Source: an uncultured Atribacterota bacterium
GTDB lineage: Bacteria; Atribacterota; Phoenicimicrobiia; Phoenicimicrobiales; Stramentimicrobiaceae
Assembly (NCBI GenBank): GCA_964485485.1
Contig: CAZAJW010000234.1
Span: 1 to 60,813 of the forward strand
DNA length: 60,813 nt
Direction of reading: 5' to 3'
Under the pieces are notes generated by a model, which ran no database searches, had not been told where the DNA came from, and worked only from the letters and a program-made list of their open reading frames with translations. The position numbers and the translations under genes are program-made. This document shows, in pieces, positions 154 through 60,813 of this stretch; positions within the stretch are counted from its first letter, which is position 1; each line of letters begins with the position of its first letter.

Positions 154-1938
154 TTATTCATCCTTTCCTACTTTATCGGATGCGAGGGATTTAATTTCTC
201 TTTCTATTTCATTTTTTATTTTTTGGAATTCATCTAAATTATCTTCAGGTATAAATTTGGATCTTATAATCTTATTGCGTACTGACAATTGATTTAATTG
301 TTCATTAGAAATATCTTCTTCTGTAATAGCTTTTTTCGCTTTTTTGTGAAATAAAATAATTAACTCTAGCATTAAATACTGCTTTTTCATAGAAGTATAG
401 GTATCAATCTCGTCAAAAGCGTTTTGATGTAAGAAATCTTCTCTGATTGAACGAGCAGTGTCCAAAGTCAAACGTTCAATTTTAGATAATGCATCAATAC
501 CCACTAGCCGAACTGTTTCCTCTAATTCCGATTCTTCCTGGAGAATACTCATTGATACAATCCTGGTATTAATGAAATCTTTGTTGATTTCATCTTTAAA
601 AAAATTGCTTAATTGATCCAGATACAAAGAATAGCTCTTTAACCAATCGATTGCAGGAAAATGTCTTTTATAGGCTAATTTATCTTGCAAACTCCAGTAC
701 ACTTGAACAGTACGCAGAGTATTCTGGGTTACCGGTTCAGACAAATCTCCACCAGGTGGAGATACAGCCCCGATTACGCTAATGGTTGCTTCTTGTTTTT
801 TAGAGGATAAACATTTTACTCTACCTGATCTTTCATAGAAGCTAGCAATTTTTGTCCCTAGATATGCAGGATATCCCTCTTCGCCGGGCATTTCTTCCAA
901 TCTACCAGATATTTCTCGCATTGCCTCGGCCCATCTTGAGGTTGAGTCAGCCATTAGAGCAACATTATATCCCATATCTCGATAATATTCTGCGATTGTT
1001 ATTCCTGTATAGACAGATGCTTCCCTCGCAGCTACAGGCATATTAGAAGTATTAGCAATTAACACAGTTCTTTCCATTAATGGCTTTCCTGAATTTGGAT
1101 CAATTAATTCAGGAAATTCAAGTAAAACGTCTGTCATCTCATTACCTCTTTCCCCGCATCCAATAAAAACAATGATTTCTGCATTACACCATTTTGAAAG
1201 TTGATGCTGTACTACGGTTTTACCACTACCGAAAGGTCCGGGAATACAGGCTGTACCACCTTTTGCAATAGTAAAAAATGTGTCAATTACTCTTTGTCCT
1301 GTAATTAAAGGTTCGTTAGGAGGCATTTTTTCTTGATATGGCCGCATTTTTCTGACTGGCCATTTTTGTAACATTTGAACCTCATGAACCTTACCGGATT
1401 TATCTTTAATTTTAGCAATCGTGTCAGTAACCTTAAAACTTCCTTCGTTAATGCTTTCTATTGTTCCCTGAAGTCCAATGGGAACCATCACACGATGTTC
1501 TACAATGGAGGTTTCTTGAACCATTCCTAACCAGTCACCAGAACTAACTTCTTCACCCTTTTTTTTAGATGCTTTAAAGTCCCATTTTTTTGTTTTATTT
1601 AAACTTTCAGCTTCTACTCCTCTAGCGATAAAAGCACCTTCATTTTTAAATATTATATCTAAAGGTCTTTGAATTCCGTCATAAATTGATTTAATCAGAC
1701 CGGGTCCCAATTCCACACTTAGTGGTAAATCGGTAGTGTAAACAGGTTCCCCTGGTCCAATACCAGAAGTTTCTTCATAAACCTGAATAGTGGCTCTATC
1801 TTCGTTTAATTCGATTATCTCACCAATAAGTTTATTTTCACTAACTTTTACCACGTCATACATTTTGGCCCCTCTTAATCCATCTGCAATTACGACCGGT
1901 CCTGAAACCTTAACAATCTTGCCTGTGTTTTGTTGCAT
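154..1938 (-). CDS. atpA: V-type ATP synthase catalytic subunit A
   Basis: ORF 154..1989 has Walker A GPFGSGKT and V/A-type A-subunit similarity along its whole length. I set the start to ATG 1938 ([18 protein letters not shown]-like AGAGGGA upstream). The 17 extra codons of the long ORF overlap subunit F. Confidence 0.95.
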
Positions 1939-4394: not shown

Positions 4395-4435
4395 TCAAAT
4401 CCCCCTTTTCTATCTTTTTCTAAATTTATTTCATT

Positions 4436-4500
4436 AAATAGCGCACCCGCTTATTTAACCATCACCAGCTTCAAAGAAGGTGGTTTTGTTGTTAAATAAA
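4436..4500 (+). repeat. Mosaic intergenic repeat, minimal copy (A-stub fused to E hairpin)
   Basis: AAATAGCGCACCCGC is joined directly to TTATTTAACCATCACCAGCTTCAAAGAAGGTGGTTTTGTTGTTAAATAAA. The copy lies between the atpI stop (4521) and the atpK start (4391). Strand is the A->E reading direction. Confidence 0.8.
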
Positions 4501-4520
4501 CTCATCTAAAAAGATTTTTT

Positions 4521-6512
4521 TTATTGTATTTTTTCCTCTACTTTAGTATATATTGTCTTGAGATTAAACGGTTTAAAGGCAACTCCTCCAGCTTGATAAA
4601 ATTTTGTGAAAAATTCTACATATTGTAGTCTGGCATCATGAATAAAAGCGCTTAATCCACTAATTAATAAGTTAAAAACATGTCCAATAAACAATATGAT
4701 TAAAGTCAAAAATATTCCTATATAGGGCACATTAGCCATCGTGGCAAGCATATTAAACATGGTGGCAATTATACCTGTGGCTAAACCTAGTGCGAACAAT
4801 CTAGAATAGGAAAGAACATCACTGAAATATCCTGTAATATTATATAAAGATAGTATCCCGCTACCAATTCTCATTATAATATTCTTGTTTGTCCTTCCTT
4901 GGGTAAAGATGAGTGTAAGGACACCAATTATCAATAGAAACCATGCTATTTTACCAAAAATCGGGGCTAGCATTCCTTGCACTAAAAGCAAAATAATGCC
5001 TGTTAATAAAATTAACCATGATATTTGATCCATAAGCCCATCTATTAATCTATCTTTTTTTAGATTATCTAAGAATTTTAAAATAATTCCCATATAAACT
5101 TGTATGACCCCCAAAGAAAGACTAAAAATCAAAAGCGGAATAGGATTGTCTGTTGGGTCAAATAAGGAAACTTTCTGAACCAAGAAATATCTTATATTAT
5201 CAAATATAGGTGGCAAATAACTTAAAATATCTCCAAACCAGCTACCAACGACTATTCCTCCAAATATTCCGGCAATTCCGCAATAATAAAGCAATCTGAA
5301 GAACTTTCTAGCACTACCTTCCAAACCCAATTTATTAATGGCAAGATAGCATAAAATAGCCATAACAGCACCATAACCAACATCGGAGAGACAGAATCCA
5401 AAAAAGATAAAATAGAATATTGAAAGAATTGGAGTCGGATCCATCTCAAAATAATTTGGAAGACTATAAAGCTCAGTTATTACTTCAAAGGGCTTAACAA
5501 ATTTGTGATTGTCTAAAGAAACAGGAACCTGGTCATCTTTATTTGGTTCAGAAAAATAGGCTTCATAAGCCTTGAAATGTTCTTTTAATCTACTCTGTAG
5601 TCTAGAAATATCTTTTTCACGTATCCAACCTTTTATTACAAAGGATTGTTCACTTTTTTTCAGATATTCTGAAACCTCTTCTTTTTCTTTGTTAATCGAT
5701 AAGAAATCATAAATTTTGTAGATTGATTGATTATTTTTAAAAATATCTTTTAACTCTAATTCAATTTTTTTTCTTCTTTTGCTAATATCACTTAATTCTT
5801 TTGAAATTTCTTTTAATATTTGAATTGGAGATCCAGAAAAATTATAATTATATTTATAAATTTCAAAGTGGTATTTCTGAGCAATTCGCTGTATTTCCTC
5901 AATATTTTCTTTTACACTAATAACAATAATATTAGATTTGTTTTTTTCTTCTTTTATAGTTTGGATAACATTTAATTTACTATGTTGTTTTACTTCATTG
6001 AAAAAACTATCCAGATTGTTTTTAGCTATTGAACCCAAGAGATATCTGACATATTTTGACTGATTAATTGTGCTTAAATCAAGTTCTAACTCTTTCCAAT
6101 CCTTGAGTTCCAGTTCGATAGCCTTTAACTTATTTTCCTGTAGCTTAAGATTATTAAGCTCATTATCAAAATCTTTACATTGCTGATATAATTCGTTATA
6201 TTCCAATTGCTGTGATAATTCAACTAGCTTAGTATAATCTAATGTTTCTTTTGAAGAAAACAATGATTTTAATCCATTATTTTTTTCTTCTTGGTAATTA
6301 GAAAGAAGATCAATGCAAAATTTAACCTTGTTTAGTTCTGCGGATATATTAGCATCAAGATTCTCTTCAATATTTTCCCAATCATGAAATACAGTTTTTT
6401 TGCTGATATGTATAATTTCAACAGAACCTAATTTTTGCAATTCCTCTAGCAACTGTTCTTTTATTGATAAGTGTGCAAAAATATGGAATTTATTTACTTT
6501 AGATATTGCCAT
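4521..6512 (-). CDS. atpI: V-type ATP synthase subunit I (a-subunit, stator/ion channel)
   Basis: 663 aa with a cytoplasmic coiled-coil N-half and a multi-TM C-half. Its operon position is upstream of K. Confidence 0.85.
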   Translation of the reverse strand: MAISKVNKFHIFAHLSIKEQLLEELQKLGSVEIIHISKKTVFHDWENIEENLDANISAELNKVKFCIDLLSNYQEEKNNGLKSLFSSKETLDYTKLVELSQQLEYNELYQQCKDFDNELNNLKLQENKLKAIELELKDWKELELDLSTINQSKYVRYLLGSIAKNNLDSFFNEVKQHSKLNVIQTIKEEKNKSNIIVISVKENIEEIQRIAQKYHFEIYKYNYNFSGSPIQILKEISKELSDISKRRKKIELELKDIFKNNQSIYKIYDFLSINKEKEEVSEYLKKSEQSFVIKGWIREKDISRLQSRLKEHFKAYEAYFSEPNKDDQVPVSLDNHKFVKPFEVITELYSLPNYFEMDPTPILSIFYFIFFGFCLSDVGYGAVMAILCYLAINKLGLEGSARKFFRLLYYCGIAGIFGGIVVGSWFGDILSYLPPIFDNIRYFLVQKVSLFDPTDNPIPLLIFSLSLGVIQVYMGIILKFLDNLKKDRLIDGLMDQISWLILLTGIILLLVQGMLAPIFGKIAWFLLIIGVLTLIFTQGRTNKNIIMRIGSGILSLYNITGYFSDVLSYSRLFALGLATGIIATMFNMLATMANVPYIGIFLTLIILFIGHVFNLLISGLSAFIHDARLQYVEFFTKFYQAGGVAFKPFNLKTIYTKVEEKIQ

Positions 6513-6825: not shown

Positions 6826-6886
6826 ATTAATCTACTCCCAAAAAGGACTAATTTAATAATTTATAAATACAGTATTATTATTCAAT

Positions 6887-6981
6887 AAATATCGCACCCG
6901 CAGAGCGGGTGGTTTCAAAGACCTCTGAAAGAGGTTTAATTTTTTACCACATTAGAAGGAGGTTGTTTATGGTTAAATAAA
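6887..6981 (+). repeat. Mosaic intergenic repeat, short copy (A + B + 3' half of E)
   Basis: It reads AAATATCG-CACCCG-cagag-CGGGTG-G, then ACCTC-tgaaa-GAGGT plus a T-run, then ..AGAAGGAGGTTGTTTATGGTTAAATAAA. Confidence 0.85.
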
Positions 6982-7210
6982 AAAAATATATTAAATAAAA
7001 CAATACACTTTAGAAAAAATATCATAAATAACTATTTAAGTCAATTTTACAATTGTATCAATAAAGATATTATTATTGAAATTTAAATACCTTGAATTTA
7101 GGTTAGTTCTAACCAATATTTAATGTTTGTCAATTATTAATATGAGCTATTATTCTTTTTAAAATAAAATCCATATAGGTATCTAAAATGTTTCTTTAAA
7201 CTAAAAAAGT

Positions 7211-7381
7211 AAATATCGCACCCGCAGAGTGAGTGGCTTTAATATTTCTTCAGCAATACAACTTCCAACTTAGGACTTCAGATAAAAAATGTATCTAGCT
7301 TATATTAATCTTTTTATGGTAAATCCATTTATTTAACTATTATTACCTTCTTAGAAGGTAGTTTTCCATGGGTTAAATAAA
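7211..7381 (+). repeat. Mosaic intergenic repeat (A + distal C + D + E)
   Basis: It begins AAATATCGCACCCGcagagTGAGTGG. Next comes ..AATATTTCTTCAGCAATACAACTTCCAACTTAGGACTTCAG..ATCTAGCTTA..TTTTTATGGTAA... It ends with the E hairpin TTATTTAACTATTATTACCTTCTTAGAAGGTAGTTTTCCATGGGTTAAATAAA. Confidence 0.88.
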
Positions 7382-7400
7382 ATAAATAAAATTATTTTAG

Positions 7401-8047: not shown

Positions 8048-8178
8048 GAGTATTTTTTAGTTTTTTCTTTCGTTTTTTTATTTATTCTTTAGCTATAATA
8101 TTCCTTAAGCAATAGTACTTCCAACTTTGGACCTCAGGCAAAAAATTGTATCTAGCTTATCTCAATCTTTTTATGGAA
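8048..8178 (+). repeat. Mosaic intergenic repeat, partial (C + D only)
   Basis: ..TTTTTCTTTCGTTTTTTTATTTATTCTTTAGCTATAATATTCCTTAAGCAATAGTACTTCCAACTTTGGACCTCAGGCAAAAAATTGTATCTAGCTTATCTCAATCTTTTTATGGAAAA. It fills the spacer between the ispG stop and the GT2 start. Confidence 0.85.
8095..8124 (-). promoter_or_regulatory. Sigma-70/SigA-like promoter carried by repeat module C, positioned to drive the GT2 gene
   Basis: The minus strand reads TTGGAA (8124-8119), an 18-nt spacer, then TATTAT (8100-8095), about 60 nt upstream of the GT2 ATG at 8030. The same TTGGAA-17-TATTAT occurs in the 36605 copy (36739-36711) and TTGGAA-18-TATTAA in the 7211 copy. Confidence 0.4.
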
Positions 8179-8186
8179 AATTAAAG

Positions 8187-9281
8187 CTAATCAAGATGAA
8201 GATTATTAATATTATTTTTAGAAATATACCTAGCCTCTTCTATCAACTTAGTCACGGATTCTTCTTTGTTGTACCGGCCAATTAATTGACCTTTTTTATA
8301 AAGCATAGCTTCTTGGTTATTGAAGGCAATTCCGATATCGGCAGATTTCGCCTCACCGGGACCGTTTACAACACAACCCATAATTGCAATAGTAAGGGGC
8401 TGACGGATATCACATAAACTACTTTCTATTTGTTTACCAATATCATGAATGTTAACCTTACATCTTCCACAGGTAGGACATGAAATAATATTAATACCTC
8501 TTTTTCTGATTGCTAGTGAACGTAAAATATCATGTCCCACTAAAACTTCCTGAATAGGATTACCGGATAAAGACACTCTTATGGTATCACCAATTCCTTT
8601 AAACAATAATACACCAATTCCTATCGCAGATTTTGTAATACCCTTTCTATCAAAACCAGCTTCTGTGATACCAATATGCAAAGGATAGTCAGTTTTTTCA
8701 GCAATGATTTGATTTGCTTTGATGGTATCTATAACATCGCTAGATTTAATGGATAGAATAATGTTATTATAATTAATTTTTTGTAAAAAAGAAATCAAAC
8801 GATCTGTTTCTTCAACCATTGCTTTAAAATTTGGTTTATCGTACTTTTCCATAATGCTCTTGTCAAGTGAACCCGAATTTACCCCAAAACGAATCATAAT
8901 ATTCTTTTTCCGGGCTTCTTCGATGATATGAATTATTTGTGATTCTTTCTTTATATTACCCGGATTAATTCTTATACCCTCAACATTATTTTTTATTGCT
9001 TCTAAGGCTATATTGGAGTTAAAATGGATATCAGCCATAATAGGAATGTGGGTTTTTTCTTTGATAATTGGAATAAAACGACAAGAATCAATATCGGGAA
9101 TAGCAATCCGAACCAAATCACATCCAGCTGATTCTAATTGTTTAATTTGTTTGATAGTTGTGCTAGTATCTTTAATATTGCAATTGGTCATGGATTGTAC
9201 AGAAACAGGGTGCTTGCCACCAATTTTTAATCTACCAATTTGCACAATTTTACTTTTTCTTCTATTAATATTCTCAGACAT
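8187..9281 (-). CDS. ispG: 4-hydroxy-3-methylbut-2-en-1-yl diphosphate synthase (GcpE)
   Basis: 364 aa with a TIM-barrel N-domain and the Fe-S cysteine pattern CPTCGRC ... GCVVNGPGE. Confidence 0.93.
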   Translation of the reverse strand: MSENINRRKSKIVQIGRLKIGGKHPVSVQSMTNCNIKDTSTTIKQIKQLESAGCDLVRIAIPDIDSCRFIPIIKEKTHIPIMADIHFNSNIALEAIKNNVEGIRINPGNIKKESQIIHIIEEARKKNIMIRFGVNSGSLDKSIMEKYDKPNFKAMVEETDRLISFLQKINYNNIILSIKSSDVIDTIKANQIIAEKTDYPLHIGITEAGFDRKGITKSAIGIGVLLFKGIGDTIRVSLSGNPIQEVLVGHDILRSLAIRKRGINIISCPTCGRCKVNIHDIGKQIESSLCDIRQPLTIAIMGCVVNGPGEAKSADIGIAFNNQEAMLYKKGQLIGRYNKEESVTKLIEEARYISKNNINNLHLD

Positions 9282-30003: not shown

Positions 30004-30283
30004 TATTCATTACCTTAACATTTAAAAATGCCTTTCAAGAAAACATTATAACAAAAAATTAATATTTCCAGAAATTATTTTCATTAAAATATTAATATTA
30101 AATAATTCCTTTTTTATGACCATTGTATCAATTCTTAAATATCTTATAATAATTTTAGTGTTTTTAGCAATTAAATATTATATAAAATATTAATTGAGAA
30201 TATATATAATAATACATAAACGATGCATAAAAAAAATAAAAAGAACAAATTCTTTATCAGTATATAGAAAATTATAATAGGTG

Positions 30284-36427: not shown

Positions 36428-36604
36428 TAGTTGTTACTACTATTCACTGCTAGTATATATAATATATTTAATGAAATCAAGTAGTATATTTATAATTTTT
36501 TTTTGCCTTAATTTTATATTTATTTTAATAATGTTAAGTTTTTTAATTGATAAAAAGCTAAAAAAATATTTTTTTTAATATGATTTATAATATTCAAATA
36601 TAAC

Positions 36605-36797
36605 AAATATCGCACCCGTTTAGCGGGTGGTTTAAAAAACCCTAGAAGAGGTTTAGTTTTTTGCTACTTTTTAGCTATTTTTCTTTCGATTTTTTATTTA
36701 TGCTTAAGCTATAATATTTCTAAGCAATATAACTTCCAACTTTGGGCTTCAGGTGAAAAATTACCATCTAGCTTACCTTAATATTTTTATGGTAAAA
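36605..36797 (+). repeat. Mosaic intergenic repeat (A + B + C + D, no E)
   Basis: This is the best-preserved A-D copy. It begins AAATATCGCACCCGtttagCGGGTGG...CCCTAGAAGAGGTTTAGTTTTTT. It continues ...CTTTCGATTTTTTATTTATGCTTAAGCTATAATATTTCTAAGCAATATAACTTCCAACTTTGGGCTTCAGGTGAAAAATTACCATCTAGCTTACCTTAATATTTTTATGGTAAAA. Confidence 0.9.
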
Positions 36798-36813
36798 ACA
36801 TTTTAACAAAGTT

Positions 36814-36841
36814 ATAGAGTGTCAGAATATTGACACTCTAT
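36814..36841 (-). terminator. Candidate intrinsic terminator downstream of rpmF
   Basis: Perfect 11-bp stem ATAGAGTGTCA / TGACACTCTAT with a 6-nt loop, about 68 nt after the rpmF stop. The minus-strand tail is only moderately T-rich. Confidence 0.45.
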
Positions 36842-36908
36842 TCAATACTAATTGTTATATAAAATTATATTCATAAATTATAAATAAGGAAATTGTAATA
36901 GCTAAAGT

Positions 36909-38364: not shown

Positions 38365-39660
38365 ATGGAAACATTAGGCATTATTGCTGAATATAATCCT
38401 TTTCATAATGGACATCTATATCATTTGCAAAAATCAAAAGAGATAACCGGGGCTAAGCATAGTATTGCTATAATAAGCGGGAATTTTCTTCAAAGGGGAG
38501 AGCCGGCTATTTTAGACAAATGGACTCGTACTATAATGGCTTTAAAAGCTGGGATTGATCTTGTTATTGAGATTCCATTTGTTTTTGCAAGCCAAGATGC
38601 CCGTGGATTTGCTCATGCCGGTATTCAACTTTTGAATTATTTGGGTATTGTAGATTGTGTTTCTTTTGGTTGTGAGGAAAGCCAAATAGCATGTTTAAAT
38701 GAATTAGTAGAGTTGTTAAAAAAAGAACCACTCTATTTCCAAAAAATACTAAAGGAAGAGGTAAAAAAAGGTGAAAATTACCCAAAAATACGGGAGAAGG
38801 CAATAGTAAAATATTATAAGAAGTTTGGAACTAAATTTAAAAACAATTCAATAGAGAAATTGAAAGAACTATTAAAACAACCAAATAATGTTTTGGCTTT
38901 AGAATATATGATATCTTTAAAAAATACAAATAGCTCTATTAAGCCATTTCCAATCAATCGTATCGGTTCAAACTATTTACAGGATAAATTAGAAGGGAAA
39001 TATTCCAGTGCTACTGCAATAAGAGAAAGAATATTTAAAAATATTTTTAATAATAACCCTATTCCTTTAGAAGGATTAAGCCCATCTATGCCTGTTTCTT
39101 CATATCAAATAATTCTAGATGAACTAAAAAAAGGCATTAATCCTATTACAATATCATGTTTTGAACAGGGAATTTTTAGCCAATTAAGAAGAATGCCAAT
39201 TGAAGAAATCAAAGAATTGCATGGTATTCAAGAAGGATTAGAAAATAGGCTAAAAGAAAGTGCAATATCATCTTTTAACATTGAAAATTTAATACAAAAA
39301 ACTAAAAGTAAACGCTATACCAGGACCAGAATACAAAGGATATTAGTTCATAGTTTATTTAATTTGAAACATAAAGAGATTGTGGCTTTTAACAATAAAG
39401 GTCCTCTCTATTGTCGGGTTCTCGGCATGACAGAAAACGGCAAAATGTTACTTAAAAGAATTAAATCGAAATCAAAATTGCCTATTATTATTAAATTAAA
39501 TAATTTTTACCAACAAAATAAATTTAGTGGAGATGTGATAGTACAAAAAATGTTAAATTACGATATATTGGCTACCAACCTATATGTATTAGGGTATAAA
39601 CTTAAAATGGCCAGAGTAGGAGCCCAGGATTATACCAGGAAAATTATAATTTTACCATGA
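38365..39660 (+). CDS. tmcAL: tRNA(Met) cytidine acetate ligase TmcAL (YlbM/UPF0348 nucleotidyltransferase)
   Basis: 431 aa with the N-terminal GIIAEYNPFHNGHLYHL HIGH-like motif. It neighbours coaD/rsmD as ylbM does in Bacillus. The TGA stop shows the standard code is in use. Confidence 0.85.
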   Translation: METLGIIAEYNPFHNGHLYHLQKSKEITGAKHSIAIISGNFLQRGEPAILDKWTRTIMALKAGIDLVIEIPFVFASQDARGFAHAGIQLLNYLGIVDCVSFGCEESQIACLNELVELLKKEPLYFQKILKEEVKKGENYPKIREKAIVKYYKKFGTKFKNNSIEKLKELLKQPNNVLALEYMISLKNTNSSIKPFPINRIGSNYLQDKLEGKYSSATAIRERIFKNIFNNNPIPLEGLSPSMPVSSYQIILDELKKGINPITISCFEQGIFSQLRRMPIEEIKELHGIQEGLENRLKESAISSFNIENLIQKTKSKRYTRTRIQRILVHSLFNLKHKEIVAFNNKGPLYCRVLGMTENGKMLLKRIKSKSKLPIIIKLNNFYQQNKFSGDVIVQKMLNYDILATNLYVLGYKLKMARVGAQDYTRKIIILP

Positions 39661-39838
39661 TAAAGATGAAGAGAAGCTATCTGACAATTTTTCACCCGAA
39701 GGCCAAAACTAGCAGTTAAATTGCTTAGAATTATTCAGTTATAATATAAGAAAAAAGCCGAACAAAAAAAGTAACTAAGAAAAAGTTGAACCCCTTTTAG
39801 GGACTCTTAAAGCAACCTGCTTAGCGGGTACGATATTT
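39650..39838 (-). repeat. Mosaic intergenic repeat, inverted copy (D-C-B-A as read on the plus strand)
   Basis: The plus strand reads TTTTACCATGATAAAGATGAAGAGAAGCTATCTGACAATTTTTCACCCGAAGGCCAAAACTAGCAG...CCCCTTTTAGGGAC...AACCTGCTTAGCGGGTACGATATTT. It fills the whole spacer between the convergent genes tmcAL and coaD and overlaps both stop codons. Confidence 0.88.
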
Positions 39839-40315
39839 ACTGAATTTTATTTTCAATTGTTTGGCAACATATGCCGGTACTAAATCGCTGATACAACCAT
39901 TTAAAGAGGCAATTTCTTTGACTATGCTGGAGTTAAGATAAGAGTATTTTGTACTTGTTACCATAAAGACTGTTTCAATTTCCGGAGCCATTTTCTTATT
40001 AATAAGAGCAAATTGAGACTCGTATTCGAAATCAGAAATTGCCCTCATACCTCTCAATATTACATTTGCCTTATTTGAACGTACACAGTCGATTAATAAC
40101 CCATCAAAAGACTGGACTTCAATTCCTTTTAAATCTTTAACTACTTTATTAATCATAACTTTTTTTTCTTCAATGGAGAAAAAAGATTTTTTACGTGAAT
40201 TTTCTGCAATAACAACAATTACTTTATCAAATATATTGCTTGCCCTTTTAATAATATCAAGATGCCCATTAGTAATTGGATCAAAACTTCCTGGATAGAT
40301 GGCTTTTATCATCAA
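39821..40315 (-). CDS. coaD: Phosphopantetheine adenylyltransferase
   Basis: 164 aa with YPGSFDPITNGHLDI. The last six codons plus the stop lie inside repeat module A. Confidence 0.95.
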   Translation of the reverse strand: MMIKAIYPGSFDPITNGHLDIIKRASNIFDKVIVVIAENSRKKSFFSIEEKKVMINKVVKDLKGIEVQSFDGLLIDCVRSNKANVILRGMRAISDFEYESQFALINKKMAPEIETVFMVTSTKYSYLNSSIVKEIASLNGCISDLVPAYVAKQLKIKFSKYRTR

Positions 40316-41293: not shown

Positions 41294-41339
41294 AAAAGAT
41301 TATCAAAAATTAATTAATTTCTGATAATCTTTTTTTATT
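41294..41339 (+). terminator. Candidate intrinsic terminator of rpmB
   Basis: Perfect 12-bp stem AAAAGATTATCA (41294-41305) / TGATAATCTTTT (41322-41333) with a 16-nt loop, followed by TTTTATTT. Two smaller AAAAGATT-type hairpins precede it. Confidence 0.55.
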
Positions 41340-41440
41340 TAATCATGAAAAAAGATATAGAGCAGCTATCTGACAATTTGTCATCTGATAAACCTCTTTT
41401 AGGAATTCTTAAAACTACCTGCTTTATAGGTGCGATATTT
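41340..41440 (-). repeat. Mosaic intergenic repeat, inverted short copy (D fragment + B + A)
   Basis: The plus strand reads ..ATCATGAAAAAAGATATAGAGCAGCTATCTGACAATTTGTCATCTGATAAACCTCTTTTAGGAATTCTTAAAACTACCTGCTTTATAGGTGCGATATTT. It lies between the rpmB terminator and the ispH stop. Confidence 0.82.
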
Positions 41441-42299
41441 ACTGATTCATCTGAAATATTTTTTTTATCCTATTAATTACACTTTCAGTGATATAATCAG
41501 GGGTAGAAGCTCCACTGGTAATTCCGATTTTATTCTTTTCTTTAAACCAGTTTTTCTTTATCTCTTGGGCTGTTTCGATATGATGTGTGTCTACACCTAT
41601 TTTTTTACTTAATTGGGCTAAGCGGGTAGTATTAGCACTATTTAATCCACCAACTACAATCATTAAGTCCACTTTCTTAGCTAATTTTCTAGTTGAGTTT
41701 TGTCTTAGACTTGTTGCCTTGCATATTGTATTAAAAATCCTTAATTCCTCAACGTTTTCAAATATTTTGGAAATTATTTGCTTAAATTCTTCTTTATCTT
41801 TAGTTGTTTGTGAGATTAATCCAATTTTACTTTTATCACTAAACGAATAGTCTTTAATGTCATCAATGGATTGGAAAACCTTAGCATTAACATTATTGTA
41901 ACTCAATAAGCTTTTTATTTCAGGGTGGTTAGTGTCACCAAAAATTATAATTTGGTAATTTTCTTTTCTTAAAAGATCTGTAATTTGATGTAATTTTTTA
42001 ACATAAGGGCATGTTGTGTCAATGAGTTTGAGATCATGTTTTTTCGCCAATTGTCTTTCATGATATGAAATGCCATGAGCTCTGGTAATAAGATATTTGT
42101 GAAAGGGAACCTGCGAAACATCCTGAACTATGTGAACTCCTTTTGATTCAAATTCACTTATAACTTGGGGGTTATGGATAATTTCTCCAAGCATGTAGAT
42201 ATTGTCATTTTGTATTTCTTTTAGCAGCTGGTTCGCCTTGTTAATTGCTCTTTTTACCCCGAAACAAAAACCAATGTTTTGGGCTTTAAATATTTCCAA
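41439..42299 (-). CDS. ispH: 4-hydroxy-3-methylbut-2-enyl diphosphate reductase
   Basis: 286 aa with GFCFGVKRA and conserved Cys residues for the 4Fe-4S cluster. The stop codon straddles the end of a repeat copy. Confidence 0.94.
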   Translation of the reverse strand: MEIFKAQNIGFCFGVKRAINKANQLLKEIQNDNIYMLGEIIHNPQVISEFESKGVHIVQDVSQVPFHKYLITRAHGISYHERQLAKKHDLKLIDTTCPYVKKLHQITDLLRKENYQIIIFGDTNHPEIKSLLSYNNVNAKVFQSIDDIKDYSFSDKSKIGLISQTTKDKEEFKQIISKIFENVEELRIFNTICKATSLRQNSTRKLAKKVDLMIVVGGLNSANTTRLAQLSKKIGVDTHHIETAQEIKKNWFKEKNKIGITSGASTPDYITESVINRIKKIFQMNQ

Positions 42300-49387: not shown

Positions 49388-49450
49388 AATATCTCATCCG
49401 TTATCTAAAAATATTGAATATATATAATCTTTCAGGAAAGGATTACAAGC

Positions 49451-49634
49451 AAATATCGCACCCGCATAGTGCGTGTCTTTAAGTACCCCCAAAAGAGTTT
49501 TATTTTAGCTCTTTCTTCTTTCGATTTTATTTATACTTTAGCCAGAATATTTCTTAAGCAATATAACTTTTGACTTTGGACTTCAGGTAATAAATTATTA
49601 GATAGCCTATCTTAATCTTTATTTATGGTAATAC
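49451..49634 (+). repeat. Mosaic intergenic repeat (A + B + C + D, no E)
   Basis: AAATATCGCACCCGcatagTGCGTG...CTTTCGATTTTATTTATACTTTAGCCAGAATATTTCTTAAGCAATATAACTTTTGACTTTGGACTTCAGGTAATAAATT..AGATAGCCTATCTTAATCTTTATTTATGGTAAT. The pdp stop follows 5 nt later. Confidence 0.88.
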
Positions 49635-49638
49635 TATT

Positions 49639-50967
49639 TTAGTTAAGTTTTTTTAATCCACATTTATCAATGACAGCTAATAACAAGGGTTCTTCTTCCG
49701 GTTTTTTATCAATAATGTGAAAAGCATTCTTTGCTATATTTTTTGCATTAAAATATCTTTTTTCATCATTAAAATATAGTGTTGCTAAAGCCTCTTTTAA
49801 ACTTACGTAATCACCTTTTTTCTTTTTTAATATTATTCCGACAGATAAATCTACTTTTGCATCTTTCACTTCCCTGCCTGCTCCCAGGGCCATAGAAGCT
49901 TCACCAATCATGCGTGCATCAACTACATCAATAAATCCATTTCTTTCAGAATATATATTTTTTTTATACTTTGCTTTCGGTAATAAATCAGTGCTGTCTA
50001 TTTGCCTTATATCACCATTTTGGCTTTTTACTATTTGCCTGAATTTTCCTAATGCCTTACCATTTCCTAAAACCTCTTTTAGTATATTAACTCCATCTTT
50101 TGGATTACTAATAACTTCAGCTGCCATTAACATGTATGACCCTATACAAAGACAAAGTTCTCTTAAATCATCAGGACCTTGATTATTTAATAATGCAATT
50201 GCTTCTTCTATTTCAAGAGAATTGCCAATTGCATATCCCAGGGGTTGATCCATCGAGGAAACAATTGCATAAGTAGCTTTATTATTATTTTCCCCAATAT
50301 TAACCATTGTTTTGCCTAACAAAATGGCATCATTAATATTTTTTATAAAAGCTCCCTTACCAACTGTTATATTTAAAACAAATGCATCTGCCCCACCAGC
50401 AATCTTTTTGCTCATAATACTACTGGCAATCAGGGGAATGCTGTCGATGGTACCCGTAACATCTCTTAAGGAATATATTTTTTTATCTGCTGGTGCAATA
50501 TTAATATTGGCACTGATAATCGAGGCGTTCACATCTTTAACAATTTCAATAAACCTTCTAATAGAAAGATTGGTTTTAAAGCCATTTATTGATTCTAATT
50601 TATCAATAGTTCCACCAGTATGACCTAATCCACGACCAGAAATTTTAGGAATCGGAACACCTGCAGCAGCAACCATTGGTAACAATGCCAGAGAAGTTTT
50701 ATCTCCAACACCTCCTGTGCTATGTTTATCAATTTTTTTCCCAGATATTGAGCTTAGATCTAATGTTTCACCTGATTTAGCCATGGTTATAGTCAAATCA
50801 TTAATTTCCCGTTCAGTCATTCCATTAAACCAAATAGCCATAAGAAGTGAGGACATTTGATAATCTCGTATTTTTCCGTTTAAGTAATTATCAATAATAA
50901 ATTGTATTTCTTCTGTAGATAGCGCTTTGTTGTTCTTTTTTTTCTCAATAATTCCGATAATATTCAC
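49639..50967 (-). CDS. pdp: Pyrimidine-nucleoside phosphorylase
   Basis: 442 aa with HSTGGVGDKTS and full-length Pdp/DeoA similarity. It uses a GTG start with no obvious SD. Confidence 0.93.
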   Translation of the reverse strand: MNIIGIIEKKKNNKALSTEEIQFIIDNYLNGKIRDYQMSSLLMAIWFNGMTEREINDLTITMAKSGETLDLSSISGKKIDKHSTGGVGDKTSLALLPMVAAAGVPIPKISGRGLGHTGGTIDKLESINGFKTNLSIRRFIEIVKDVNASIISANINIAPADKKIYSLRDVTGTIDSIPLIASSIMSKKIAGGADAFVLNITVGKGAFIKNINDAILLGKTMVNIGENNNKATYAIVSSMDQPLGYAIGNSLEIEEAIALLNNQGPDDLRELCLCIGSYMLMAAEVISNPKDGVNILKEVLGNGKALGKFRQIVKSQNGDIRQIDSTDLLPKAKYKKNIYSERNGFIDVVDARMIGEASMALGAGREVKDAKVDLSVGIILKKKKGDYVSLKEALATLYFNDEKRYFNAKNIAKNAFHIIDKKPEEEPLLLAVIDKCGLKKLN

Positions 50968-51036
50968 AACAGAAGTAGTCAGAGGACTAGATGTCCCTGA
51001 AATCCTTTCAAAATAATATTTTAACTTATTACAGTG

Positions 51037-51275
51037 AAAATCGTACTCGCATAGCGGGTAGATTAAGAGCCTTTAAAAGAAGTTTATCTTTTTTTTACTC
51101 TTTTTCTTTTTTCGATTTTTTGTTTATATTTTAACTATACTTCTAAGAAATATTGTTTTATATTTTGAGTTTCAGGTGAAAAATTGTTAGATAGCATATC
51201 TTAATTTTTATTTCTGACAAAACTATTTTATTTAACCATTACCAACTTTTAAGAAGTTGGTAATGGTTAAATAAA
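51037..51275 (+). repeat. Mosaic intergenic repeat, full-length copy (A-B-C-D-E)
   Basis: All five modules are present. The A hairpin is TACTCG-catag-CGGGTA (51044-51060). E is a perfect 21-bp inverted repeat, TTATTTAACCATTACCAACTT (51228-51248) with AAGTTGGTAATGGTTAAATAA (51254-51274). Confidence 0.9.
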
Positions 51276-51282
51276 TATAATA

Positions 51283-53247
51283 TTATAAAAATAAAGGTAT
51301 AAAAACCAACGATACAATGGACATAACTTTAATTAAAATATTCATAGATGGCCCTGCTGTATCTTTAAAAGGGTCTCCGACTGTATCACCGATAACTCCT
51401 GCTTGATGTGCTGGTGAATTTTTACCACCATAGTTTCCTTTCTCGATATATTTTTTTGCATTATCCCAGGCACCCCCGGAATTGGCCATCATAATCGCTA
51501 AAAATACTCCTACAACAACTGAACCCAGTAAAAGACCCCCAAGAGCTTCTGGACCAAGAAATACGCCAACAAAAATAGGAGCAATAATAGCAAGCAATCC
51601 TGGTATTATCATTTCTTTCAGTGCACCCTTTGTGCTAATATCTACACATTTTTCTGGTTCTGGTTTAGCAGTGCCTTCTTTTAAACCAGGTATTTCTTTA
51701 AATTGTCTTCTTACTTCAGCAATCATTAATGACGCGGTTTTTCCAACAGCTTCTATTGTCATGGAAGCAAAAAGGAATGGTAATATGCCTCCAATAAAAA
51801 TACCAATCATTACCATGGGATTAGTAATACTAATAATACTCAATTCTACAGATTTACTATATGCAGTAAATAATGCTAATGCGGTTAAAGCGGCTGAGCC
51901 AATGGCAAATCCTTTCCCAATAGCTGCAGTAGTATTTCCTACAGCATCCAATGAATCGGTAATCTTTCTTACTTCAGGTTTCAGCCCAGCCATTTCGGCT
52001 ATTCCTCCTGCATTATCTGCTATAGGTCCATAAGAATCAACCGATACTGTCATGCCTACAATAGATAGCATTCCAACTGCAGCAACAGATATGCCATACA
52101 GCCCTGCAAAATAATGAGAAACATAAATTGCTATACAAATGACAATAATAGGTAATGCTGTGCTTTTGAGCCCCACCGCAAATCCTTCCAGAATTGTAGT
52201 TGCAGCTCCTGTTAATGATGCTTCTGATATTCTTTTTACCGGAGAATAATCATAGGAAGTATAATATTCTGTAATCAACCCAATTGCTACACCGGCAATT
52301 AAACCGGAAATCGTTGCAAAGAATATTGACAGATTTCCAAACAATGCATAAGACAAAGCAAAAGACACAACTACTACCAGTGCACCACTTATATATGTAC
52401 CTAAATTTAATGCCTTATGGATACTTCGGTCATCCTTGGGGGATATGAAAAAAGTTGCAATAATTACAGAAATGATCCCACAAGAAGCAAGAATTAAGGG
52501 ATAGGTAATATAGTTTACCGAATCGTGCAATATGCTACCCAATATCATGCATGACAAAATAGAACCTACAAAAGATTCGAACAAATCTGCTCCCATCCCT
52601 GCTACATCTCCAACATTGTCTCCAACATTGTCTGCTATTACTGCAGGGTTCCTTGGATCGTCTTCAGGTATTCCTGCCTCAACTTTTCCAACTAAATCAG
52701 CTCCTACATCTGCAGCTTTCGTATAGATACCACCACCAACTCTGGCAAATAGAGCTATTGAACTAGCACCTAAAGCGAAGCCATTAATTAAGTTAGGGTC
52801 TTCGTATAAATAATATAAAATACCTAAACCAACTAGGCCAAAACCGGCTACTGACATACCCATTACTGCTCCTCCGGAAAAGGCAATTTTTAGTGCTTTT
52901 GCCAATCCGGATTCCTGAGCTGCAAATGTGGTTCTTGCGTTAGTCTTTGTAGCAATTTTCATACCTATAAATCCTGCTAATGCCGAACATGCTGCTCCAA
53001 ATACAAATGAAATACCAGTTATGTTTCCTCTAACTAATACAATTATAATTGCAATGATAATAACAAAAAATATCAAAATCGAATATTCTCTTTTTAAAAA
53101 TGTCATTGCACCTTTTTCAATCGACATTGAGAGTTGCTGCATTAAATCGCTCCCTGCTTTTTCAGACATAACACGTTTTGCCAGTATCATTGCATATAAC
53201 AACGATATTAAACCACTAAGAATGATCATCATCTTAATTACCAACAT
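51283..53247 (-). CDS. hppA: Membrane-bound pyrophosphatase, K+-dependent type (H+ or Na+ pumping)
   Basis: 654 aa, about 16 TM, with DNVGDNVGD and [10 protein letters not shown]. Ala rather than Lys in GNTT[A/K]A marks K+-dependent enzymes. Confidence 0.93.
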
Positions 53248-53402
53248 TTTTGACTCCTTTTATATTAATAAAATTTATACAGCCAATACATATAAATATA
53301 AGTAAAATTATAATTATTTTCTATATAAACTATAAATGGATAAAATAATTATAAATCAATATTACTATTAATATAATATTATTTTATCACATTTAAAATT
53401 AC

Positions 53403-60493: not shown

Positions 60494-60727
60494 AGATATT
60501 GTCCCCGCATAGCTGGTAGCTCTAAGAACTTCTAAAAGGGGTCAATTATCTGTTTAGTTTTAGTTAACCTTTTTTCTACTATTTTAACTGAAATATTTAC
60601 AAGTAATATAACTCTTTTAGATTTTAGATGAAAAATGATCATATGGATTATCTAGATATTTTTATGGTTAAATTTTCATTTAACCATTACCAACTTCTAA
60701 GAAGGTGGTTTTTCATGGTTAAATAAA
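60494..60727 (+). repeat. Mosaic intergenic repeat, full-length but most divergent copy (A-B-C-D-E)
   Basis: AGATATTGTCCCCGcatagCTGGTAGC...CTTCTAAAAGGGG...TTTTAACTGAAATATTTACAAGTAATATAACTC...TATCTAGATATTTTTATGGTTAAATTTTCATTTAACCATTACCAACTTCTAAGAAGGTGGTTTTTCATGGTTAAATAAA. Confidence 0.85.
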
Positions 60728-60813
60728 CGGATTGGGAAGTAATTTATTCGCCTTTTTTATTTTAATTTCATTATGGAGGTTTGTCATTATAACATCCATC
60801 TCTGGTGAAAACT

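Follow-up and report, generated by a model that had tools for sequence, protein, structure and literature searches.

Atribacterota of the Oleincola/Stramentimicrobiaceae lineage carry a repeat of approximately 250 nt that has spread through their intergenic spacers, and it is very probably a non-autonomous derivative of the IS200 group (IS200/IS605 family) that lacks tnpA and resembles palindrome-associated transposable elements (PATEs) or miniature inverted-repeat transposable elements (MITEs). Herein, we examined the copy that lies between hppA and pdp in a 60,813-nt contig of an uncultured Atribacterota bacterium, the whole of which is called the window, together with its relatives in other Atribacterota genomes. 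The initial annotation had divided this copy into modules A to E and had likened its two ends to those of IS200/IS605-type elements or PATE-like derivatives, a reading that is now supported by the sequence homology of one end, the right end (RE), as well as by shape. Across syntenic stretches the window is approximately 92% identical to contigs of Candidatus Oleincola secundus, and it therefore comes from a close relative of this bacterium, whose genus belongs to the family Stramentimicrobiaceae of the class Phoenicimicrobiia (JS1) (PMC11227167).

The window has a G+C content of 30% and a negative GC skew throughout, and its minus strand carries nearly all genes. The focal copy (51033-51275, approximately 240 bp) is intergenic and lies between the stop of hppA at 51283 (sodium-translocating pyrophosphatase gene, 51283-53247, minus strand) and the start of pdp at 50967 (pyrimidine-nucleoside phosphorylase gene, 49639-50967, minus strand). 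Its parts are listed below from the left end (LE) to the RE. The strands in this and the later list follow the IS200 sense, to which the A-to-E sense is opposite (eight copies on the plus strand and two on the minus strand).

51033..51275, minus strand (in the IS200 sense, the LE is at 51275 and the RE at 51033): focal full-length copy, from an nhmmer profile match (positions 3-251 of 255) and the boundaries of a 52-copy alignment
51227..51275, minus strand: module E, the LE, a perfect 22-bp palindrome, from inverted-repeat detection, direct reading and folding
51085..51226, minus strand: internal modules B-C-D, non-coding, with a T-rich B and conserved C/D blocks (..TTTCAGGTGAAAAATT.., ..TATCTTAAT..)
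51068..51084, minus strand: hairpin 2 of module A, decayed (AGCCTTT AAA AGAAGTT vs consensus AACCTCT AAA AGAGGTT)
51033..51060, minus strand: RE terminus and hairpin 1, homologous to the end of the IS200 RE, ...GCCACCCGCTATGCGGGTGGATATTTACT

The profile match confirmed that the focal copy has every module, and its boundary was moved from 51037 to the conserved left edge at 51033, approximately 4 nt further left. The perfect inverted repeat with a 5-nt loop is real, and its arms (51227-51248 and 51254-51275) are 22 nt each and 100% complementary, one pair beyond the 21 first described. It consists of an inner hairpin (CCAACTT/AAGTTGG) and an outer stem (TTTATTTAACCAT/ATGGTTAAATAAA), with its edge 8 nt from the hppA stop codon. 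When folded as single-stranded DNA (ssDNA), the palindrome reached -21.2/-21.4 kcal/mol, compared with -4 ± 1.8 kcal/mol for shuffled sequences (z approximately -9 to -11). None of the 200 shuffles folded as well. The description of two GC-clamped hairpins held for hairpin 1 (TACTCGC/GCGGGTA, 51044-51060), which is intact with one G.T and one compensated pair; on the plus strand, the terminus and this hairpin read AGTGAAAATCG TACTCGC ATA GCGGGTA, where the family consensus is AGTAAATATCG CACCCGC ATA GCGGGTG. However, hairpin 2 is decayed here, with two wobbles and one mismatch, and falls outside the minimum-energy fold; only in the consensus do both hairpins form clean 7-bp stems.

Module A and the right end of IS200

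When positions 1-33 of the family consensus (AGTAAATATCGCACCCGCATAGCGGGTGGCTTT) were compared with plasmid records, seven Enterococcus faecalis plasmids matched at 32 of 33 positions (97%, E = 4e-4 in 7.3 Gb). The match lies approximately 95 nt beyond the stop of a 151-aa open reading frame (ORF), which was assigned to the Pfam family PF01797 Y1_Tnp ('Transposase IS200 like') with E = 9e-41 and is near the TnpA of Salmonella IS200 (279/343 bits). Alignment of two insertion contexts of this E. faecalis insertion sequence (IS) revealed that the similarity stops exactly after ...GCCACCCGCTATGCGGGTGGATATTTACT (...GCGGGTGGATATTTACT). Reverse-complemented, the Atribacterota terminus reads ...GCCACCCGCTATGCGGGTGCGATATTTACT and finishes on the same last base, the right end common to both being ...GCGGGTG[G/CG]ATATTTACT. 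The same right end also stands behind the tnpA of an IMG/VR contig, a third gene of the IS200 type with greater divergence. No match came from phage and E. coli collections.

The agreement extends to the design of the whole RE, which in this IS of approximately 750 bp with its 151-aa Y1 TnpA is nearly the same as in the repeat: a small hairpin (AGCCCTTCTAGGGCT vs AACCTCTTTTAGAGGTT), an A-rich spacer, GCCACCCGC-TAT-GCGGGTG(G/C) and then (G)ATATTTACT. When the IS without its ORF was aligned with flipped copies of the repeat, the scores were 126.5 and 115, compared with 71.4 ± 7.3 and 68.7 ± 7.6 for shuffles, and most of the signal came from the right end. Since module A is the IS200 right end, the element has to be read flipped, with E as its left end; the A-to-E polarity assumed at the outset is thus the reverse of that relative to tnpA. 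At the LE, the E. faecalis hairpin is CCACGCG-TACTG-CGCGTGG and that of the family is CCACCTTC-TAAG-GAAGGTGG. Both have a CCAC...GTGG foot and follow an A-tract, both LE termini begin with TTTTATT, and neither element has terminal inverted repeats (TIRs) or a target-site duplication (TSD).

Unlike IS200, the repeat has no tnpA, and its non-coding interior of approximately 140 nt shows at most a faint likeness to the IS200 5′ untranslated region (5′ UTR). Its LE is much shorter, a 13+9-bp palindrome, and it is found in another phylum at approximately 100 or more copies per genome, compared with the handful of a typical IS200.

The repeat family, its termini and its spread

Self-comparison of the window revealed ten family copies, complete or partial, which account for 3.0% of the DNA at a density of 1.6 copies per 10 kb. 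A 24-nt module-A pattern was matched exactly in five of them, with none expected by chance. The same pattern occurred in at least 102 stretches of a species-representative genome collection. Among the matches listed, approximately 90 came from eight or nine Atribacterota metagenome-assembled genomes (MAGs), including Candidatus O. secundus, and approximately ten were isolated in unrelated taxa, about the number estimated by hand for chance.

A family profile of 255 positions was derived from 52 copies, with a consensus of approximately 250 nt whose conservation is sharply bounded by AGTAAATAT and GGTTAAATAAA. In the fetched Atribacterota loci (numbered L008, L057 and so on, approximately 0.75 Mb in total), the profile search detected approximately 140 copies, of which 41 were full length and the others were recurrent internal-deletion or E-less forms. 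Beyond the ten copies of the window, the family thus counts at least 130 in eight or nine Atribacterota MAGs. The perfect palindrome, which had been taken for the archetype, turned out to be a minority variant of E, present in approximately 14 of the 41 full copies (GGTGGTAATGG); approximately 25 have an asymmetric loop (GGTGGTTTTT(T/C)ATGG). The latter architecture had been described correctly for the copy at 60494, where a 10-bp outer stem and an inner stem with one mismatch are separated by an asymmetric loop of T vs TTTTC. The palindrome of the focal copy is a variant of the LE hairpin in which TA replaces the A-tract on the 5′ side, making the arms fully complementary.

The C/D blocks of the interior are 80-90% conserved. 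On both strands the consensus hairpins fold, at -13.8 kcal/mol (z -4.9) and -13.3 kcal/mol (z -4.2). Their covariation is modest: nine pairs were changed on both sides, compared with 3.4 ± 1.4 in shuffles (0 of 500). In two loci (L068 5514-5650 and L103 approximately 1830-1930), B/C is replaced by an alternative module (…CCAGGATATTCA..GAATCCTTCCC..AGAACCCC.TGGATACTATG…), which points to either another subfamily or a small element nested there.

The termini AGTAAATATCG... and ...GGTTAAATAAA of the 52-copy consensus are not reverse complements of each other, so the element has no TIRs. A and E had been called unrelated, but they are not wholly so: their hairpins have a CCACC...GGTGG foot in common. 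No TSD was detected at 37 full copies, whose flanks are unrelated: the longest shared flank word averaged 3.81 vs 3.72 ± 0.17 in permuted pairs, and edge repeats 0.35 vs 0.53 ± 0.14. The candidate TSD TAAATA was rejected, because the right terminus does not mirror variants of the left one (C for T) and the flanks are unrelated. A classical TIR-bounded MITE, against which the initial annotation had also decided, was discarded for want of both TIRs and a TSD. The LE boundary always falls between (T)TTTAT and TTAACC, and no flank motif was found beyond it. A likeness of 20 nt between two apparently empty sites was considered as a target motif and dropped, since it did not recur.

Deletion derivatives have multiplied. 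An 85-nt mini form, in which hairpin 1 is joined to E, has an identical junction at four unrelated loci of one MAG, and a form without profile positions 60-108 (delta60-108) occurs at six loci of another MAG. Because forms with the same junction are found at unrelated loci, the terminal segments are sufficient for spread, and the B-C-D interior is dispensable, as the mini forms lack it. One full copy is nested inside an older, decayed copy.

Presence and absence also differ between genomes. The copy at 36601-36810 of the window has no counterpart in O. secundus (L057), and a 38-bp spacer of the window corresponds to one with a copy in L016. Near coaD, the window and O. secundus both carry a copy, each with internal deletions of its own, and L080 has none. 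For placing a target motif, these filled and empty pairs are too diverged or involve deleted copies. In L019, a copy (4785-4943) lies in the spacer orthologous to window 30007-30245 (238 bp), where no copy was detected; the window may hold a fully decayed copy there, or that of L019 may be an independent insertion.

The focal copy is an old, decaying insertion. It was found in four related genomes, with orthologues in L038, L103 and L104, and in these three E and D were lost independently by deletions at short direct repeats or microhomology. The B-C interior of the orthologues is approximately 60% identical, compared with 94-100% for the flanking genes, and hairpin 2 is destroyed in L103 as well as in the window.

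The copies are strongly oriented. The A side faced the start of an opposite-strand gene in 99 of 119 cases, and the E side abutted the stop of an opposite-strand gene in 86 of 108. From the E side to the upstream stop the median distance was 31 nt, with many copies within ± 10 nt, and from the A side to the next start codon it was 78 nt. Therefore, the IS200-sense strand of approximately 80% of the copies runs with the genes and with the G-rich strand. In IS608 and ISDra2 the active strand lies on the lagging-strand template, and the orientation of the repeat runs in the direction expected from this property.

A putative transposase and alternative explanations

By analogy with the biochemistry of IS608, ISDra2 and ISGst (PMC10055086), we infer a single-strand mechanism, an acting transposase and a target motif for the repeat. 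In IS200 polarity, the left end (module E) consists of TTTATTTAACCAT, an A-tract or TA, the hairpin CCACCTTC-TAAG-GAAGGTGG and then TAATGGTTAAATAAA. A non-coding interior of approximately 140 nt leads to the right end (module A), which has a pair of hairpins; GCCACCCGC-TAT-GCGGGTGC is the final one, and behind it come GATATTTACT and the terminus. Acting in trans, a Y1 (HUH) transposase would bind both subterminal hairpins on one strand of ssDNA, cut at the LE and RE boundaries and free an ssDNA circle, and the donor would be resealed without a scar. The expected circle junction is ...GATATTTACT joined to TTAACCAT... or TTTATTTAACC... Insertion of the circle would follow on the 3′ side of a short motif next to the LE, without target duplication. 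TTTAT is a candidate for this motif, being the invariant pentanucleotide at the LE boundary of the repeat, and the same pentanucleotide is the transposon-adjacent motif of ISGst2 (PMC10055086).

The search for the enzyme gave one Y1 transposase in those Atribacterota genomes, the 142-aa TnpA of a distinct IS200-like element, here called IS-Ole, which occurs in O. secundus and relatives.

L008 1101-1650, L166 11355-11900 and L172 approximately 2412-2965: IS-Ole, distinct IS200-like element, LE CAAGTGAGAACTCCCCACCTGTAAAGGTGGGG, RE CCACGCCTGTAAAGGCGTGG

IS-Ole directly follows TTTAAT in three of three contexts. Its TnpA has more than 2000 homologues, many of them on short contigs and one annotated as Candidatus Atribacteria, and there are many near-identical metagenome copies; the element is apparently active. 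It meets the repeat at two places: in L008 (O. secundus) it lies directly against the RE terminus of a copy, and in L166 (a related metagenome contig) it fills the spacer between pdp and the A-adding tRNA nucleotidyltransferase (NTase) gene that elsewhere holds the repeat. The IS-Ole hairpins have the same CCAC...GTGG foot as the repeat. Approximately 200 nt from IS-Ole, L008 also contains a 28-aa C-terminal remnant of a Y1 transposase (1810-1893, minus strand, WSPDYFISTAAIYVNSILKYIQFQESQD), which is 43% identical to residues 107-134 of the E. faecalis TnpA. An A-like right end beside this remnant was seen by eye only and was set aside as unsupported by nhmmer.

Several results weigh against an IS200 derivation or against parts of the proposed mechanism. 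The autonomous partner that the initial annotation had looked to was not found: in the approximately 0.75 Mb of Atribacterota DNA, no tnpA lies between an E-like LE and an A-like RE. IS-Ole is at most a candidate for mobilising the repeat in trans: its TnpA is 33% identical to that of E. faecalis, and its ends and its target (TTTAAT) differ. Homology was found for the RE only; the likeness of the LE to that of IS200 (A-tract, hairpin with CCAC foot, TTTTATT start) is weak. The conservation of the C/D interior at 80-90% exceeds what transposition by the ends alone would need, and the target motif is inseparable from the conserved terminus. The close filled and empty pair, 36601-36810 vs L057, involves a copy without LE, and the 'empty' allele keeps ATATTTAAT, which resembles an RE terminus; this allele may have arisen by deletion and need not be an unoccupied site. 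Finally, the orientation of the copies relative to replication is confounded with transcription.

No A...ORF...E arrangement was found in the fetched DNA searched with the profile. Clustering of the 602 ORFs of the Atribacterota loci for a copy-adjacent transposase gave one large paralogue cluster (19 members, domains unscanned) and otherwise orthologues only. In L014, inverted solo A modules flank ORFs that by eye are methyltransferase-like, HD-domain-like and acetyltransferase-like, none being a transposase.

There is a small chance that the family is better understood through its present use, that is, that Atribacterota co-opted it as a standard intergenic punctuation unit, with the LE palindrome as terminator or 3′ stabiliser and the interior or RE hairpins as promoter, 5′-UTR structure or small RNA. 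The placement of the copies would fit such an exapted cassette: the E side lies near upstream stops (median 31 nt) and the A side before the next start (median 78 nt), with the RE hairpins 20-90 nt upstream of the start codon in a near-fixed position. On the gene-sense strand a terminator-like structure was called at 51274-51228 (minus strand) with a weak tail, AATAGTTTTG. The bulged variant has TTTTTT behind its inner hairpin, but only on the strand antisense to the genes, and most copies have no U-tract after the palindrome on the gene-sense strand. The pdp-NTase spacer is occupied in lineages down to 71% pdp identity, the element supplies the stop codons of coaD and of an energy-coupling factor (ECF) T-component gene, and the C/D blocks are conserved as described above. 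However, the orthologous hppA-pdp copies decay freely (E and D lost three ways, hairpin 2 destroyed, interior approximately 60% identical), which argues against strong selection per locus. A promoter scan gave 11 sites vs 11.6 expected from shuffles, and hand-picked -35/-10 candidates on either strand were dropped, as they are not conserved between subfamilies. Exaptation would also account for retention only; neither it nor the simpler proposal of a shared terminator explains why the RE is homologous to that of IS200 or why mini forms have spread. As an analogue for co-option, a regulatory RNA of Salmonella is reportedly derived from the IS200 5′ UTR.

The initial annotation had allowed equally for a structured RNA gene. 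As a multicopy non-coding RNA with its own promoter, ending at the E hairpin, the repeat is very improbable. The folds of both strands are much more stable than those of shuffles (z = -6.3 and -8.2), and compensatory changes are in small excess; but the fold signal comes almost wholly from the palindrome. Module C of one subfamily contains TATAAT, but this motif is not conserved from one subfamily to another. The inner E hairpin with TTTTTT resembles an intrinsic terminator when read on the A-to-E strand. No strand is favoured, however, because G.T and A.C mismatches are even (48 vs 56 in hairpin 2; 30 vs 28 in the E inner hairpin). The whole window contains no Rfam family at gathering score, and at E <= 1 the locus matched only plant miRNA-hairpin models on the palindrome, far below threshold. 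The density of approximately 1.6 copies per 10 kb, the truncated and rearranged forms and the ends homologous to a DNA transposon also speak against an RNA gene.

Just as improbable is mobilisation by another hairpin-using system, either repetitive extragenic palindromes (REPs, or paired as REPINs) with a REP-associated tyrosine transposase (RAYT) or attC-like sites with an integron-type tyrosine recombinase. RAYTs do act on hairpin-bearing intergenic repeats and are Y1/HUH relatives of IS200 TnpA, but the repeat is approximately 250 nt long with two different ends, not a REP of 20-40 nt or an inverted pair. The R''/R' consensus of attC sites is RYYYAAC/GTTRRRY, which the outer stem of E (ATTTAAC...GTTAAAT) fits by eye, and E shares with attC sites an asymmetric internal loop. 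Such a match is expected by chance in an AT-rich palindrome, however, and the neighbours are housekeeping genes in conserved synteny rather than cassettes. The attC-like reading of E was set aside, with neither cassettes nor an integrase found. No integrase or RAYT-like ORF recurs beside the copies, and the right end matches IS200 proper, including the exact terminus.

Read as an IS200 derivative without tnpA, the repeat can be compared with several systems. Derivatives of IS200/IS605 elements without tnpA are known as the PATEs of Haloquadratum walsbyi (PMC3119063) and from Geobacillus stearothermophilus (PMC10055086). Like the repeat, PATEs are short, gene-less and multicopy, have LE and RE with subterminal palindromes, lack TIRs and TSDs and are presumed to be mobilised in trans. 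The described PATEs come from tnpB-bearing IS1341/IS605-type elements and often keep the omega-RNA region, whereas the repeat comes from the tnpA-only IS200 group and showed no TnpB or omega-RNA signature (no Rfam match). A further difference is that the matching autonomous element was not identified for the repeat in the fetched Atribacterota DNA. REPs and REPINs share with it the abundance, the intergenic hairpins, the orientation between genes and an HUH/Y1 enzyme related to IS200 TnpA. They are units of 20-40 nt or inverted doublets with one kind of hairpin, whereas the repeat has unlike ends and a modular interior, and no RAYT was seen among the ORFs of the fetched loci.

The BOX elements of pneumococci (boxA-boxB-boxC) are modular and intergenic, with conserved terminal modules, a deletable middle and strong folding. 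Their likeness to the repeat is one of layout only, as BOX is without demonstrated homology to IS200 ends.

Other copies, neighbouring features and significance

The other nine copies of the window are as follows.

60494..60729, minus strand: full-length copy upstream of recO with asymmetric-loop LE, from the profile search; orthologue in L025 266-524
49442..49646, minus strand: A-D copy in the pdp-NTase spacer, from self-comparison and profile search
41335..41445, plus strand: degenerate copy (A and fragments) between ispH and rsmD, from pattern and profile search
39641..39843, plus strand: A-D copy between convergent genes, in opposite orientation, from self-comparison and profile search
36587..36810, minus strand: A-D copy downstream of pta, from the profile search; missing at the orthologous site of O. 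secundus (L057 approximately 4401-4415)
8050..8189, minus strand: partial copy (B-C-D), from self-comparison and profile search
7207..7395, minus strand: internal-deletion copy (hairpin 1 joined to C-D-E), from self-comparison, pattern and profile search
6865..6995, minus strand: short copy (A and part of E), from self-comparison and pattern
4432..4501, minus strand: mini copy (start of A directly joined to E), from self-comparison and comparison of mini forms

The pdp-NTase spacer is also occupied by the element in L038, L103, L104, L113, L106 and L107. Exact-protein look-ups for hppA and the tRNA nucleotidyltransferase returned no record.

Some element termini supply stop codons. The terminus AGTAAATAT of the copy at 39641-39843 provides, on the minus strand of the window, the stop codon TAA of coaD (3′ end at 39821-39843); the ORF has a different end in L080, where the element is missing. 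At L008 857-866, a gene that by eye resembles an ECF-transporter T component ends in the TAA of TTTATTTAACC, and in L014 the acetyltransferase-like ORF runs into module A (…SKYRTRIAGSFKNP).

Three other palindromes were noted. At 36838-36863, downstream of pta, a 10-bp perfect hairpin (TAGAGTGTCA GAATAT TGACACTCTA) is separate from the repeat, being conserved in O. secundus without a copy of the latter, and is probably the terminator of pta. In the ispH-rsmD spacer (41294-41333), an overlapping palindrome with 24-nt arms (96% complementary, AAAAGATTATCAAAAATTAATTAA / TTAATTAATTTCTGATAATCTTTT) stands beside the degenerate copy. Unrelated to the family is an AT-rich inverted repeat at 53339-53388, whose 23-nt arms are 83% complementary and which lies between the start of hppA and the pyruvate, phosphate dikinase gene.

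Atribacterota (OP9/JS1) dominate many subsurface, oil-reservoir and digester communities, and they are known from few cultures and mostly from fragmented MAGs. Among the 156 element segments detected, 13 reach the edge of a fetched stretch (L017, L020, L047, L050, L062, L072, L074, L093, L101 and others), and in several of these cases the contig itself stops there. Assemblies of Atribacterota MAGs appear to break often at the repeat, for which its density (approximately 1.6 copies per 10 kb, 3% of the window) offers a concrete reason. It also causes annotation error, since copies supply stop codons and are read through as ORF tails. Its presence and absence, together with the deletion subfamilies, provide a marker for strain and species history.

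Literature searches on Atribacterota repeats or transposons found nothing relevant. The repeat is a known kind of selfish DNA that is newly seen in this phylum; it is notable for its density, for the phylum and for the conservation of the IS200 RE. The mechanism is not new, but the known range of IS200/IS605 derivatives without tnpA now includes the tnpA-only IS200 group and one more phylum. The right end of IS200, 29-33 nt long, is nearly unchanged across Enterococcus, an uncultured virus-associated contig and Atribacterota, and conservation of this degree, as read from the sequences, points to a site that is probably tightly constrained by TnpA recognition.

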